NCBI GenBank assembly: GCA_964396935.1
Contig: CAYNGK010000003.1
Span: 1-30,971, forward strand
DNA: 30,971 nucleotides
Source of the DNA: an uncultured Methanosarcinales archaeon
GTDB taxonomy: Archaea > Nanobdellota > Nanobdellia > Woesearchaeales > UBA525
Reading direction: 5' to 3'
A program made the translations under genes and the position numbers. Of the stretch, positions 5,048-10,547 are shown one piece after another; within the stretch, counting starts at the first letter, position 1; each line of letters opens with the position of its first letter. The notes under the pieces were generated by a model. The model searched no databases. It was not told the DNA's origin and saw nothing but the letters and a program-made list of their open reading frames with translations.

Positions 5048-7221
5048 TCAGAACGCCTTGCGCTTGAGCAAAAGCGAGTTCCCCACCACGCTCACGCTGC
5101 TTGCTGCCATCGCTGCGCCGGCGAGCATGGGATTGAGCATGCCCAGCGCCGCGAGCGGGATCCCCAGCACGTTGTACACGAGCGCCCAGAACATGTTCTG
5201 GCGGATCTTGCGCATCGTCAGGCGCGACAATCGCAACGCCCTCACGACATCAGCGAGATCATCGCGCATGAGCACGATGCTCCCGGTCTCCATCGCGACA
5301 TCCGTCCCGCTCCCCATCGCGATGCCGATATCGGCCTGCGCGAGCGCTGGCGCGTCATTGATGCCGTCGCCCACCATCGCGACCAGCACGCCTCCTTCCT
5401 GGAGGCGCTTGACGTGCGCCGCCTTCTCACCGGGCAGCACCGAGTGGAACACGTGGTCGGGCGCGATCCCTGCTTCAGCGGCGATCGCTTTCGCAGTGCG
5501 TTCGTTGTCGCCGGTGATGAGATATGTCGCGATCCCCATCCCTTGCAACTGCGCGACAGCGCTCTTGCTTGTCGGCTTGAGGGTGTCGGCGACCGCGATC
5601 ATGCCGATGAGCTTTTTGCCCTTGGCGACGAGCATCACGGTCTGCCCTTGCGCTTCGAGCTCCTCGCGCTGCACGCGCAAGGCGTCCGTGCGCACCTTCT
5701 GGCGCGCCATGAGACGCTCGTTGCCGATCGCGATGAGATCCGTGCCGATACGCGCGCTCGCACCGTGACCTGGCACAGCAGCGAATCCCTTCACTTTCGC
5801 CGGCGCGATGCGTTGCGCGTGCGCGTACGCGACGATCGCCCGCGCGAGCGGATGCTCGGATTCCCGCTCGACGCCAGCAGCTGCCTTCAGGAGCCGCTCG
5901 ACGGTCGTCCCTTTCGCCGCGACCACTGCCGTGACGACGGGCTTGCCGGTCGTGATCGTGCCGGTCTTGTCCAGCACGATCGCGTGCACTCGCTGCGCTG
6001 CCTCGAGGGCGTCGCCGCCCTTGATGAGCACGCCCGCTTGCGCGCCCTTGCCGGTGCCGACCATGATCGCGGTGGGTGTCGCGAGCCCCAACGCGCACGG
6101 GCACGCGATGACGAGCACGGCGACCGCCGCGAGGATGCTCTCTCCGTGCCTGCGAAGACCCAGCGCCAGGCGGCGAACGTCCCGATCGCGATGAGGATGA
6201 CCGCCGGCACGAACCACGCGCTCACGCGATCGGCGAAGCGCTGGATGGGTGCCTTGCGCCCTTGCGCGTCACTGATGAGCTTGATGATGTGCGCGAGGGT
6301 CGTGTCCGCGCCGACTTTCGTCGCCTTGACGCGCAACGATCCGGTCGTGTTCACAGTCGCACCGATGACTGCGCTGCCACGAGACTTCTCGACGGGGATG
6401 CTCTCACCGGTCAGCATGCTCTCATCGACCGAGCTCGTGCCTTCCGTCACGATGCCGTCGACCGGGATGCGTTCACCTGGACGCACGAGCAGGAGATCGC
6501 CCGCCAAGACCTGATCCACCGGCACCTCGTGGTGCTCCTTGCCGCGGATGACGGTCGCGGTCTTCGGCGTGAGGGTCATGAGTGCCTGGATGGCGGCGCT
6601 CGTGCGGCCACGCGCCTTCGCCTCGAGGTACTTGCCAAGGAGCACGAGCGTGATGAGGACCGCGGCGGTCTCGAAGTACTGCTCCATCGCGCCAAGCGCG
6701 AACACGAGGTACACGCTGTACAGGTAGGCGGCGGATGTGCCGATGGCGATGAGCGAGTCCATGTTCGCCGATCCGTTGCGCAGTGCCGCCCATGTGCCGC
6801 GGTAGAACGGCCAACCGACGTAGAATTGGACTGGCGTCACGAGCAGGAACAGGAGATATGGCGCGAACGGTATGGTGATGCCGGTCGGTCCTCCTTCCAT
6901 AAAGAGCATCCCGATGATGAGGGCGGGGACCGTGAAGATGGCGCTCAACAGCAATCGCCTCTTGAGATCGCGCTCCTCCATGTCCTGGTGGCTGTGCTGC
7001 GCTTCCTCGCCCGTGTGCGGGTGCGCACCGTAGCCGCGTTTCTCGACGGCGCTGATGAGTGTTGCCGGGTCGACGTTGTCCTCGTGGTCGATCGTCGCGC
7101 GAGCAAGCGCGTAGTTCACGTTCGCCTCCTTGACGCCGTCAGCCTTCTTGAGCCCGCGCGTGATGATGTTCGCGCAACTCGCGCAGTGCATGCCGGTGAT
7201 GTCAAGTGTAGTGGTCTTCAT
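5048..7221 (-). pseudogene. copA: Cu(I)-translocating P1B-ATPase split by a frameshift at ~6138-6147
   Basis: The 5' frame carries HMA GMHCASC, NMDSLIA, YFETAA and TGES. The 3' frame carries [33 protein letters not shown], and YN/MAASS. The frames join at ...WVFAGT(E)/GESILAAV... over a GAGAGAG run. Confidence 0.9.
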
Positions 7222-7240: not shown

Positions 7241-8125
7241 TCAATACAGCCCTCTCGGGAGCAGCAGTGTGAGTGCGGTCGTCACGAGCATGATCGCGGC
7301 CGCGACGACGATCGCTGCCCATGCGGGCCACGGCATGATCTCGGCGCCTGTCCCCTCATGCTCTTGCGCGATGACGCGCATGAGCCCGGCGAGAGCGATG
7401 CCGTTCACGGCGATCGTGATCGCGATGAAGATCACCGGGTGCTCGAGGACCATCATCACGGTGAGCATCGCACCCATCGTGCCGCCCATGAACCCCGCCA
7501 TGATGCCTTCCATGGCGCCCATGATGCCGCAGCAGCGTCCTGCGTACACGCCTGCCGGGATGCCTAGGAGGATGCCGATCGTGGCGCCCCAGAACATCCC
7601 GTTGAGGAGGCCGGCGACGGCGCCGATCATGAATCCGGTGCTCATGCCGATGGTCATGCCGACCATCATCCCGGTCATGCACGAGACCTCGCGACGGTAT
7701 GCGCGCTGGTGCCAGATCGCCATGAGATTGACGCCGACCGCGACCGCGAGCAAAAGGAGCGGTGCGACGTACTTCGGGCTCCATGCGGGGAATGACGGTG
7801 CGAGATAGCGCAAGAAAAGCGATTGTATGCCGATGAGGATGGCGAGGCCAACCGCGCCTGCGGCGATGATCCGTCGTTCGACGGCCGTGGACGGTGTGGC
7901 GGCCGGGTTCGCTGCCTTCTTCTTCGTGTCGGAGAGCTTGTAGCCATGGCGCGCGAGCGCATCTGCGATGCGGCGCTTGGATACGTCCGCGTGCTCGATG
8001 ATCGCCTTACCGGTCTTGACGTCGATGCGCTGCACCGTGACATCTTCTTTGGCGAGGTCGCGTGTGATGACGCGTGCGCATGCTGCGCAGTGCGTTCCTT
8101 CGATGGTGATCTCCTGTGTCGTCAT
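7241..8125 (-). CDS. HMA-domain protein fused to a Met/Gly-rich polytopic membrane domain, 294 aa
   Basis: The likely start is [16 protein letters not shown] (ATG 8125, 1 nt after the copZ stop, SD GGAGG). The membrane region has 15 Met and 3 Cys in 78 residues. Confidence 0.8.
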
Positions 8126-8126
8126 G

Positions 8127-8324
8127 CTACGTCGCCTCCGCCCGATACCCTTCGGCCTGAATCGCCGCGACGAGCGTGTCCTTGCGGACGCTCTTGTCGT
8201 GCTCCACGCTCGCCTTGCCCATCGTGACGCGTGCCTTGCGCACACCGGGGATGTCCGTGAGGACCTCCTCGAGGAGTGCGACACAGCTCGCGCAGTGCAT
8301 CCCGTCGATCTTCAGTTCTGTCAT
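8127..8324 (-). CDS. copZ: CopZ-like copper chaperone (HMA), 65 aa
   Basis: MTELKIDGMHCASC...AIQAEGY. ATGA overlap with the ArsR stop, SD GGAGG. Confidence 0.9.
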   Translation of the reverse strand: MTELKIDGMHCASCVALLEEVLTDIPGVRKARVTMGKASVEHDKSVRKDTLVAAIQAEGYRAEAT

Positions 8325-8698
8325 GCTTTCCTCCCGCAGCAGCACGCCTTCGCTGCGTCCGCGCAGTGCGTGCGCGCATGGTCATCGATCATCGCGAACA
8401 ACGGCTTGATGGTCCTCTTGTCGAGCGTGTAGATGCGATACTTCCCGGCGCGCGCTGCAGTGACGAACCCGCGCTCCTCGAGCTGCTTGAGCGCGTGGCT
8501 CACCGCCGTCTGCTCGAGGGCGGTCTCCTTCGCGATATCCGTCACGTTCTTCCCGCCGTCCAGGAGGGCAGTGATGATCGCGAGCCGGTTCTCGTTCGCG
8601 AGCGTGCTAAAGAACGTCGCGTACGGTCCGCAGGAGCAGTTGGCGCATGAGCACGTCGGGCCGCAGGAGCACCGGCCATCGCCTGTTGTTTTCTTCAT
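8321..8698 (-). CDS. ArsR/SmtB-family metalloregulator with Cys-rich N- and C-terminal tails, 125 aa
   Basis: Core FSTLANENRLAII...VTDIA...QTAVSHALKQLEERGFV...GKYRIY. The N-tail is CSCGPTCSCANCSC and the C-tail is HC...CCC. Confidence 0.9.
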   Translation of the reverse strand: MKKTTGDGRCSCGPTCSCANCSCGPYATFFSTLANENRLAIITALLDGGKNVTDIAKETALEQTAVSHALKQLEERGFVTAARAGKYRIYTLDKRTIKPLFAMIDDHARTHCADAAKACCCGRKA

Positions 8699-8771: not shown

Positions 8772-9284
8772 TCACGTGACGACGATAGTGCCCGTCATCT
8801 CACGGTGTCCCTCGCCGCAGTACACGTTGCAGCGGAAGCTGAACGTGCCGGTCTTGTCTGGGATGAACTCGACGGTCTTCGTCTCGCCGGGACCGAACGT
8901 GCCGGTCGTGACGTCGAACTCCGGGATCGAGATGCCGTGCTCCCCCTCGCGGCTCGTCGCGATGAGACGCACGCGCGTCCCGACGGGCACGGTGATCCTG
9001 CTCGGCTCGAAACCCCAATCGAACGCCTCGATGCGGATCTCCTGTATGGCCTGCGCTCCTGCCGTCGTCTCTGCGCTTGGAAGCGGTTCCGTTTGCGTCT
9101 CTTTTGCTGGGACGGTATCCTGGGCGGGGACCTGCGCAGGCGGCACTGGCGCAGCGGAGGCGTCGGCAGGCACATCCGTCGTCGGTGCGTTCTGCGCGCC
9201 CGCGTCGATCGTGCTTGCCGCGGGAGCGCACGCGACCGTGAGTGCGGCGATGACTGCCAGTGCTATCCAGATCCGCGATTCCAT
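8772..9284 (-). CDS. Secreted or lipid-anchored cupredoxin with a CuA-type motif, 170 aa
   Basis: Signal peptide with lipobox-like LTVA-C, a Pro/Ala/Thr linker, then EHGISI...FRCNVYCGEGHREMTG (H...CxxxCxxxHxxM). Confidence 0.85.
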   Translation of the reverse strand: MESRIWIALAVIAALTVACAPAASTIDAGAQNAPTTDVPADASAAPVPPAQVPAQDTVPAKETQTEPLPSAETTAGAQAIQEIRIEAFDWGFEPSRITVPVGTRVRLIATSREGEHGISIPEFDVTTGTFGPGETKTVEFIPDKTGTFSFRCNVYCGEGHREMTGTIVVT

Positions 9285-9310: not shown

Positions 9311-9769
9311 TTATGCGGCGACGATCACGCCACTGAACATCCCCATGCTGCACGAGAAATCATAGCGCCCGGGCGCAGGGGTGAACTCGAACTCGCTATT
9401 CGTTCCCAGCTCCAACCGTTCGCTGATGCCGAGCTTTGGCGCGACGAAGTAGCTTGCGCACCCGCGCGCTTCCCCATCGATGATCAACCGCACTGGCTTG
9501 TTGGCCTCGACCTGGAACTCATTGGGTGTGTACCCGCGGTCGGTCGCGGTCATGCGCAGGACCTGCACGCCGTCCTCAAGCTCCGCCGTCGTCGGTTGAT
9601 TGCCGACAGGAAGCGCCGGAGGTTGCCCGGCCCCGCCCGTGCGTGAGAAGATGGCATAGAGCGTGCCCGCGAGTATGACGACGAGCACGGCGATGCCGAT
9701 CAGGGCAATCCATGGTGTGCTCTGTGTCGGTGCTGGTGCTGCGTAATCCCGCTTGCGGCGTTTGCCCAT
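9311..9769 (-). CDS. Membrane-anchored cupredoxin (CupA/Cupredoxin_1-like), ~152 aa
   Basis: Basic N-terminus, one TM helix, GYTPNEFQVEANKPV, GCAS, and FSCSMGM. The start at ATG 9769 is inferred. Confidence 0.82.
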   Translation of the reverse strand: MGKRRKRDYAAPAPTQSTPWIALIGIAVLVVILAGTLYAIFSRTGGAGQPPALPVGNQPTTAELEDGVQVLRMTATDRGYTPNEFQVEANKPVRLIIDGEARGCASYFVAPKLGISERLELGTNSEFEFTPAPGRYDFSCSMGMFSGVIVAA

Positions 9770-9812: not shown

Positions 9813-10547
9813 TCACAACGTGATGCCAAACGCCATCGCTATGCGCTCCTCGACCCCGAATAGCCAGCCGATGAGGGGGCTGCGCGCAAGCAGCGTGTCG
9901 AAACGCATGAGAAAGACGAGGCCGACCACCAGGAGCATCGCGCCGGTGATAAGCTGCGTCGTGTGGACGCGCCGCCCCCACAGGTGCACCGTTCGGCCGC
10001 GCAGGATGGCGAGGAACCGGCCGCCCTTGAGGCGGTCGAGGAACGCGCTGATGATCAGGAGCGGCACAAGCAGGCCCAGCGCGTACGCCGCGAGCAGAAG
10101 ACCGCCTTGGAATGCGGTCTGGGTCTGCGCGGCGAGCAGGAGCGCGGATCCGACGATCGGGCCGATGCACCCGCTCCAGGACACCGCGAAAAGGAGTCCG
10201 AACAGGAACGCGCCAGCAAGCGTGCGTTTGGGCTCCGCGCGTACCTGGAACCCGGGAAGCTCGTGGCCGGAGATCAGGATGCCCCCCAAGATGAGGAACA
10301 GCACGCCGACTGTTCGCGTGATCACGTCTTTATTCGCGGCGATGAGCGCGCCAAACGACCCGGCGAGCGTACCGAGCGCGATGAACACGAAGGCGAGACC
10401 CGCGCCAAAACTCAGCGTGCGTGCGATCGTCCCGATACGCGTGGGTGTCGCCGCGAACGCGAAGTACGCGGGCAGCACCGGCAAGGTGCACGGCGCGAGA
10501 AACGAAAGGACGCCGGCAAGGAACGCGAGCAGGAGGAGAGCGAGCAT
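9813..10547 (-). CDS. ccdA: CcdA/DsbD-family transmembrane thiol-disulfide electron transporter, 244 aa
   Basis: Two conserved Cys motifs, SFLAPCTLPVLP and SWSGCIGPIVG, in a ~6-7 TM protein. Confidence 0.88.
   Translation of the reverse strand: MLALLLLAFLAGVLSFLAPCTLPVLPAYFAFAATPTRIGTIARTLSFGAGLAFVFIALGTLAGSFGALIAANKDVITRTVGVLFLILGGILISGHELPGFQVRAEPKRTLAGAFLFGLLFAVSWSGCIGPIVGSALLLAAQTQTAFQGGLLLAAYALGLLVPLLIISAFLDRLKGGRFLAILRGRTVHLWGRRVHTTQLITGAMLLVVGLVFLMRFDTLLARSPLIGWLFGVEERIAMAFGITL

Follow-up and report, generated by a model that had tools for sequence, protein, structure and literature searches.

A Met- and Gly-rich seven-helix membrane protein with an HMA domain, encoded in an archaeal copper operon, is a candidate for a new Cu(I) membrane route

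We analysed a stretch of 30,971 nucleotides (hereafter the window) from an uncultured archaeon of the Woesearchaeales (GenBank assembly GCA_964396935.1, contig CAYNGK010000003.1, positions 1 to 30,971 of the forward strand). On its minus strand the window carries a cluster of seven genes, which runs from position 10547 to position 5048 and consists of a DsbD/CcdA-type gene, two cupredoxin genes and the series arsR-copZ-X-copA. This report is concerned with gene X (7241-8125, minus strand). As judged from the translation and from an AlphaFold2 model, it encodes a protein of 294 amino acids (P0001), in which an HMA domain is followed by a seven-helix membrane domain rich in Met, Gly and Cys. The cluster is a copper operon whose membrane component X is so far undescribed and draws on Cu(I) ligand chemistry of a known kind, and there is a reasonable chance that this component represents a new class of conduit. 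Gene X is present in a single copy in its genome (1.44 Mb in 118 contigs, 91% complete). A diphthamide synthase and a Nip7-type PUA protein, also encoded in the window (Pfam), indicate an archaeon.

The four genes of the arsR-copZ-X-copA series, all on the minus strand, are tightly spaced. The gene of an ArsR/SmtB-type regulator with Cys-rich tails (8321-8698; Pfam HTH_5, E 2.7e-10) and copZ (8127-8324), which codes for a 65-residue HMA metallochaperone (Pfam HMA, E 1.6e-11), overlap by 4 nt, the arsR stop and the copZ start sharing the sequence ATGA (8324-8321). A single nucleotide separates the copZ stop from the start of X, and 19 nt lie between the X stop and the start of copA (5048-7221), whose ATG is preceded by GAGGA. 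CopA has an N-terminal HMA domain and matches the Pfam families E1-E2_ATPase, HMA and Hydrolase. The motifs CPC, YN and MxxSS, in transmembrane helices (TM) 4, 5 and 6, respectively, were found in the translations; this combination denotes the P1B-1 class of Cu(I)/Ag(I) pumps. The spacing and the Pfam assignments of the neighbours agree with the original prediction, made from the sequence alone, which had put X between copZ and copA in a tightly coupled arsR-copZ-X-copA unit.

The translation of 7241-8125 is free of stop codons. The longest mechanically defined open reading frame (ORF) extends as far as a GTG at 8284, overlapping copZ in a different frame; we took the ATG at 8125 as the start because close homologues begin at the equivalent position. 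The HMA domain comprises residues 1-66 (7928-8125). Pfam PF00403 matches residues 6-63 with 30.6 bits (cut-off 24.8 bits, E 4.6e-7), and the motif is G-T-H-C13-A-A-C16, its loop reading G-T-H-C where G-M-x-C is usual. In the HMA-bearing rows of the family alignment A1 the first Cys of the CxxC motif is present in 41 of 41 and the second in 40 of 41 sequences. The N-terminal HMA domain with a THCAAC motif, as originally described, is thus borne out.

A structural model of X was obtained by AlphaFold2 with the family alignment as input. The model has a predicted local distance difference test score (pLDDT) of 93.6 and a predicted template modelling score (pTM) of 0.86. Its HMA part displays the beta-alpha-beta-beta-alpha-beta order of strands and helices, and superimposes on CopZ, CsoZ, Atx1, GolB and the CopA N-domain with Z scores of 9-10 and root mean square deviations (rmsd) of 1.5-1.6 A. 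A K/R-rich linker of lower model confidence (about residues 67-78) connects it to the membrane domain (residues 79-294, 7244-7891). The seven modelled helices of the latter extend over residues 79-107, 117-142, 149-175, 177-199, 201-224, 230-255 and 268-288, with turns of one residue connecting TM3, TM4 and TM5. The membrane domain modelled alone gave the same picture (pLDDT 92.4).

The unusual composition of X is concentrated in the three central helices. Residues 148-225 (window positions 7451-7684) contain 15 Met, 3 Cys and 19 Gly. At the Met frequency of the neighbouring genes (1.9%), the chance of finding at least 15 Met in 78 residues is 3e-11. Eight of the core Met belong to TM5 (202, 205, 209, 213, 217, 220, 224 and 225) and five to TM3 (150, 153, 154, 157 and 161), and in both helices some of them are spaced four residues apart (M153/M157/M161 and M209/M213/M217). 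The core also contains C149, the C198-C199 pair, N175 and E206, and E228 is located just beyond it. Thirteen successive Gly residues follow each other at a strict four-residue spacing between positions 152 and 200; then come Gly 203, 207, 211, 215 and 218. The counts of 15 Met and 3 Cys given in the original prediction for 7684-7451 proved exact, and the GxxxG-like spacing that it noticed is more regular than stated there.

An alignment of 55 diverse members of the X family revealed that this core (TM3-TM5, residues 149-225, 7451-7681) is also the conserved part of the protein. Mean column entropy is 0.7-1.5 bits in TM3-TM5, as opposed to 2.1-2.5 bits in TM1, 2, 6 and 7. Ten Met residues (M153, M154, M157, M161, M202, M209, M213, M217, M220 and M224) and about eighteen Gly are invariant, and M150, T158, N175 and M177 are nearly so. 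Position 206 is Glu or Gln across the family; position 228 is Asp or Glu, with Glu in X and Asp in most relatives. H139 is kept in 47 of the 55 sequences, C149 and C199 in 46 each and C198 in 38. The complete CC pair is found in 38 of the 55 members and in about 64% of the 233 members collected, whereas C149 occurs in 82% of the latter. The family core can be written as G-M-M-x-G-M-T-x-G-M ... N-G-M-F ... G-x-M-G-x-M-E-G-x-M-x-G-x-M-x-G-x-M-G-A-M within a seven-helix domain. X itself carries every invariant column of alignments A1 and A2, and a profile built from other members matches it at E 2.2e-76. The Met-rich membrane array that had caught attention in the single sequence is thus a property of the family, in which the Met, the Gly and most of the Cys positions are conserved. 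To judge by the alignment, Met and Gly define the family, and Cys is common but dispensable.

The positions that do vary in TM3 and TM5 form one narrow stripe. All conserved Met residues and E206 lie 108-180 degrees away from it in the alignment, from which we infer that the conserved Met residues would point away from lipid, towards the inside of the protein or a conserved protein interface. The variable stripe is presumably the lipid-facing side. We also considered an internal duplication, in which TM3-4 would correspond to TM5-6, and found it unsupported (hhalign probability 3%). The hhalign probability of 96% obtained for TM3 against TM4 over 22 columns reflects their shared GxxxG period only.

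We then searched for known relatives of the membrane domain. Scans of the whole protein against Pfam and NCBIfam with E up to 1 returned hits of HMA type and no family for the membrane domain; hits to Thia_YuaJ and Tox-PL-2 were rejected as noise. A sequence-profile search of the PDB with the membrane domain yielded two chance hits only (E about 0.02), and Foldseek, run against the PDB, matched nothing but the HMA domain. Comparison of the full model and of the membrane domain alone with 48,161 representative chains by VIA-align produced no credible match to the membrane domain; the best one, a designed helical filament (Z 8.8, rmsd 6.7 A), was within the noise of helical bundles. In the ESM Atlas only clusters labelled 'hypothetical protein' were found, a tblastn search of a plasmid collection gave no match to X, and the full-text literature contained no description of the family that we could find. 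No solved structural relative of the membrane domain is detectable, which does not by itself prove a new fold. The statement of the original prediction that this is no recognised characterised family stands, with Pfam, NCBIfam, the PDB profile search, Foldseek and VIA-align all empty for the membrane domain.

Relatives of X are numerous. A word-indexed search collected 258 related proteins, whereas HMMER found 526 (E up to 0.001) or 229 (E up to 1e-10) among 1.84 billion representatives of clusters formed at 50% identity. A scan of one genome per prokaryotic species detected a relative in 366 genomes, nearly all of them from Woesearchaeota, Pacearchaeota, Nanoarchaeota, Micrarchaeota and Aenigmatarchaeota; a few bacteria of Parcubacteria type were also among them. 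Of 301 genomes sampled from the phylum of the window, 73 (24%) had X, almost always as a single copy. The membrane domain of X defines a real, undescribed family, mostly of DPANN archaea. It exists in two forms, one of about 300 amino acids with an N-terminal HMA domain and one of about 227 amino acids consisting of the membrane domain only; an N-terminal CxxC motif was found in roughly half of the 233 collected members. The names given to members in databases ('hypothetical protein', 'copper chaperone CopZ', 'cation transporter') are all based on the HMA part. One unusual relative, P0003 (499 amino acids, from a single 2-kb metagenome contig), is 82-83% identical to X across the first two thirds of X, and then continues, instead of with TM5-7, into the C-terminus of a HisKA_3/HATPase_c histidine kinase. 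This could be a real fusion as well as a chimera created by assembly.

To see how closely X is linked to copper genes, we searched 80 X-related loci with the window's own proteins. A copA gene was located within 7 kb of X in 74 of the 80 loci. In each of the remaining six the contig stops no more than about 2 kb downstream of X, so none of them counts as a real exception. The copA gene lies downstream of X on the same strand in 64 loci; the median gap is 850 nt, and the gap is within 2.5 kb in 67 loci. An HMA or copZ gene was detected in 79 of 80. In a genome of roughly 1 Mb with one copA, adjacency within 7 kb would be expected by chance in about 1-2% of cases. Co-occurrence at the level of genomes was assessed by reading two genome lists against each other for the same 301-genome sample. 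CopA (TIGR01511-type) is present in 204 of these genomes: in 71 of the 73 with X and in 133 of the 228 without it. X needs the pump, and the pump does not need X. The connection with copA and copZ, which the original prediction had described for this one operon, holds across the family.

A further recurrent partner of X is a CupA-type cupredoxin, whose gene was found no more than 1 kb from X in 45 of the 80 loci (median gap 171 nt). In some relatives (P0163, P0219 and P0263) this type of cupredoxin is fused directly behind TM7 of the membrane domain, and in P0250 a SurA_N-type domain is located between TM7 and the fused cupredoxin. P0255 and its kin carry a DnaJ domain within the loop between TM6 and TM7, and behind it one further helix and the cupredoxin. 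J domains work in the cytoplasm, and SurA_N-type domains work outside. The HMA domain of X has no signal peptide and is followed by the K/R-rich linker, and the predicted inside loops contain on average 9.8 Lys and Arg per sequence, compared to 2.6 in the outside loops. The stand-alone CupA-type neighbours begin with a short charged N-terminus and then a hydrophobic segment, resembling a signal anchor; Lys and Arg are more abundant before than after this segment in 22 cases, as opposed to 6 with the reverse. All these signals, from the fusions as well as from the charge bias, agree on a predicted topology of X with the N-terminus inside and the C-terminus outside. In this orientation H139, C149 and C198-C199 would lie at the cytoplasmic face, close to the HMA domain on its tether, and N175, M177, M224, M225 and residue 228 at the outer face; the CupA-type domain would be outside.

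The relatives with a DnaJ domain in the TM6-TM7 loop (P0255, P0257, P0261, P0264 and P0265) are divergent members without Cys, at least one of which (P0255) also ends in a cupredoxin.

In the window X and the CupA-type gene are not direct neighbours; the latter is upstream, together with a gene for a CuA-type cupredoxin and the DsbD/CcdA-type gene. The CupA-type protein (9311-9769, minus strand; Pfam Cupredoxin_1, PF13473, E 6.3e-14) has pneumococcal CupA (2MRY/4F2E) as its best relative in the PDB (E 8.9e-8). Its ligands, those of the binuclear Cu(I) site, are arranged as Cys ... C-x-M-x-M, and both Cys and both Met residues align with those of CupA. The protein starts with a K/R-rich signal anchor and is predicted to face outward. 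The second, exported cupredoxin (8772-9284, minus strand; Pfam Cupredoxin_1 and COX2) carries the complete CuA motif C-x3-C-x3-H-x2-M, and its best PDB matches are subunit II of ba3 oxidase and a CuA domain (E 1.3e-12). No subunit I of a haem-copper oxidase (COX1) was found in the 91%-complete genome, thus the CuA-type protein is an orphan without an obvious oxidase partner, and for the same reason we rejected a reading in terms of CuA assembly. The gene at the head of the cluster (9813-10547, minus strand; Pfam DsbD_TM, E 3.2e-11) codes for a membrane thiol-reductant transporter of DsbD/CcdA type, and the CupA-type gene follows it directly. This neighbourhood suggests that, outside the cell, either the Cys ligands of the cupredoxin are maintained in reduced form or Cu(II) undergoes reduction. 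Two further Cupredoxin_1 genes (G000:C35:12595-12921 and G000:C28:14936-15151, loci L083 and L086) bring the number in the genome to four, which is many for a genome in which no copper oxidase was detected.

Two other features of the operon deserve mention. Comparison with an intact relative by tblastn revealed that the copA frame shifts once near 6136-6156, just upstream of the CPC helix, so that two overlapping ORFs (5887-7221 and 5048-6217) represent the gene. TIGR01511 gave two part-matches in the genome (best E 5e-104), and a second copA was not found with this model in the 91%-complete genome. The frame change may be a sequencing or assembly error or a real lesion. Neither this break in copA nor the outward CupA-type partner featured in the original prediction. 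The ArsR-type regulator, a soluble protein with 10 Cys and Cys-rich tails at both its N- and C-termini, represents an unusual type of sensor for a cop operon; a homologue was detectable nearby in only 15 of the 80 X loci.

Taken together, we consider it somewhat probable that X is an integral-membrane Cu(I)-handling protein working with CopA, CopZ and an outward-facing CupA-type cupredoxin. The simplest model using all the parts would be a relay. A flexible tether of about 15-20 residues would hold the HMA domain on the cytoplasmic side. Close to this domain, where TM2, TM3 and TM4 reach the cytoplasm, H139, C149, C198 and C199 could form a thiolate/imidazole cluster, from which the invariant Met stripe would lead along the buried faces of TM3 and TM5 to an outer group comprising N175, M177, M224/M225 and residue 228. 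Packing of Gly on Gly between TM3, TM4 and TM5 would keep the thioethers in register, and Cu(I) would be passed by ligand exchange between the outward CupA-type protein and the cytoplasmic chain of HMA domain, CopZ and CopA. In our estimate the chance that X relays Cu(I) through the membrane, in whichever direction, is slightly better than even. Somewhat below even, but still a serious possibility, is that it constitutes a new class of Cu(I) conduit, a seven-helix Met ladder with glycine zippers that would be a prokaryotic counterpart of Ctr1, structurally unrelated to it.

For the direction of such a relay we have a tentative preference for inward movement, though at odds clearly below even. 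The polarity of the ligands resembles that of Ctr1, with thioethers outside and in the membrane, thiolates inside and then a CxxC HMA acceptor; the inside-negative membrane potential favours entry of a cation; CopC/CopD and CcoA-CopZ-CcoI (see below) offer precedents; and an importer would be safe only in a cell that has a pump. On the other hand, co-transcription with an efflux pump, under an ArsR-type regulator that is presumably derepressed by metal, would favour outward movement, or else a CopA-coupled lateral hand-off, an alternative that we regard as rather unlikely, though clearly worth considering.

Several observations weigh against the proposed relay. Metal binding, transport and direction are all properties that we infer, the first of them from residue chemistry alone. 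Each direction has its own difficulty: passive outward movement of a cation opposes the membrane potential, and inward movement would seem pointless in an operon that also encodes an efflux pump and is controlled by a metal-responsive ArsR-type repressor. Most of the CopA-bearing genomes in the sample (133 of 204) do without X. The Cys residues, as far as the alignments tell, are not universal and cannot be indispensable to the basic function of the family. Finally, the predicted outward placement of the CupA-type domain contrasts with pneumococcal CupA, which is taken to face the cytoplasm (PMC7558416).

The original prediction offered a Cu(I) permease, a CopA accessory protein and an intramembrane metal store. 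Domains that bind metal occur on both sides, HMA inside and, in the fused relatives, CupA-type outside, which makes a relay or permease likelier than a pure store, so that the choice is narrowed, though not settled, among the three. X could be a membrane-tethered chaperone or a dock for CopA that carries nothing through the membrane. The HMA domain and the cytoplasmic Cys/His cluster might gather Cu(I) and deliver it to the entry platform of CopA in the manner of pneumococcal CupA, or the membrane domain might take Cu(I) at the exit of CopA and pass it sideways to the outward CupA-type protein. Such a role would be in line with the strict dependence on CopA (71 of 73 genomes and all 74 untruncated loci), with the flexible tether of the HMA domain and with the pneumococcal precedent (PMC7558416). 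A simple tether, however, needs neither seven helices nor an invariant Met stripe running the full length of TM5, and a soluble CopZ is already encoded next door. A search for longer fused proteins gave one DnaJ-bearing relative only and no X-CopA fusion, which is a weak piece of evidence. We hold this explanation to be unlikely.

Storage of several Cu(I)/Ag(I) ions on the Met/Cys arrays, away from cytoplasmic targets, would account for the extreme density of 15 Met and 3 Cys in 78 residues, and X is probably expressed together with resistance genes; in a variant of this idea the Met residues would act as sacrificial antioxidants. The few ions that one protein could hold make a poor capacity compared to cytosolic stores, and the exact Met and Gly positions are invariant even in distant relatives, and this suggests a defined geometry, not binding in bulk. 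The fusions to metal-binding domains on both sides of the membrane also fit transfer better than storage. A store is, in our opinion, improbable. The combination of a vicinal CC pair in the membrane domain with a fused HMA domain recalls yet another system, MerT/MerP and the MerTP fusion, in which an HMA domain is joined to a small membrane carrier with a vicinal Cys pair; X might accordingly be a carrier of Hg(II) or Cd(II) like MerT, MerC or MerF, with its HMA domain acting as MerP or NmerA. A weak match to the NCBIfam model MerTP_fusion was in fact observed, confined to the HMA domain (E 0.0013, 18 bits versus a cut-off of 180). The membrane domain shares no homology with that of the Mer carriers (no MerT, MerC or MerF match in Pfam or NCBIfam with E up to 1), and no mercuric reductase (MerA, TIGR02053) scored above the cut-off in the genome. 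The context of X is copper, its conserved neighbour being a P1B-1 Cu(I) pump, and Met thioethers are typical ligands of Cu(I)/Ag(I), not of Hg(II). This reading is largely refuted, and we give it hardly any weight.

How Cu(I) crosses prokaryotic cytoplasmic membranes outside the P1B pumps is poorly understood; the carriers known or proposed so far, CopD/YcnJ and CcoA, are few and mechanistically unclear. Judged by its sequence features, X is a good candidate for a new Cu(I) membrane route. The family makes a compact test object, with a confident predicted structure, invariant stripes of thioethers and glycines, and members naturally fused to copper chaperones of two kinds, one on each side of the membrane. 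To our knowledge, genetics is not yet feasible in the DPANN archaea and ultra-small bacteria that have X. If X conducts Cu(I), it would be a transporter of new fold, convergent with the solution that eukaryotes found in Ctr1, and its activity would account for a conserved part of copper operons, so far without annotation, in DPANN archaea and in some of the ultra-small bacteria. If it turns out to be only a tethered chaperone, it would still add a new component to the standard CopZ-CopA model.

The relay proposed for X can be compared with several known systems. The CopC/CopD pair is thought to move copper inward. Neither CopD (PF05425) nor CopC matched X in Pfam with E up to 1. CopC and CopD (PcoC and PcoD) and the CopCD fusion YcnJ (PMC8424229) resemble the system predicted for X in that an outward beta-sandwich copper chaperone works with a polytopic membrane protein, both being encoded in a copper operon and sometimes fused. 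CopD is His-rich, whereas X is rich in Met and Cys, has a different number of helices and carries a cytoplasmic HMA domain. In the CcoA-CopZ-CcoI route of Rhodobacter copper is imported via a membrane protein with Met motifs, handed to CopZ and re-exported by a P1B pump (PMC7558416, PMC8475189). CcoA is a 12-helix transporter of the major facilitator superfamily, unrelated to X, and the route serves cbb3 oxidase.

The copY-cupA-copA operon of Streptococcus pneumoniae shares with the window the position of a gene for a membrane-associated Cu(I) chaperone between regulator and pump (PMC7558416). The likeness goes further, as the window encodes a true relative of CupA and one is encoded beside most relatives of X. 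X differs from CupA in not being a cupredoxin, and the pumps differ as well: the N-terminal domain of CopA is an HMA domain in the window and a cupredoxin in pneumococcus.

A parallel in terms of motifs is Ctr1 (SLC31), a eukaryotic high-affinity channel for Cu(I). In Ctr1 two thioether rings formed by MxxxM, together with a glycine zipper of GxxxG type and an HCH site in the cytoplasm, which feeds HMA chaperones, suffice for the selective passage of Cu(I) (PMC6437178). X and Ctr1 have in common intramembrane Met residues at i/i+4 spacing, the GxxxG zipper, a Cys/His site at the cytoplasmic end and a hand-over to a chaperone of HMA type. The likeness is one of motif only: the Ctr family (PF04145) did not match X in Pfam with E up to 1. 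No Ctr chain was among the structural matches listed. Ctr1 is a eukaryotic protein of three helices, whose pore with its two Met rings is formed between three subunits. X, found in archaea and ultra-small bacteria, is a seven-helix chain that has about 13 conserved Met residues on two helices and the HMA domain covalently attached.

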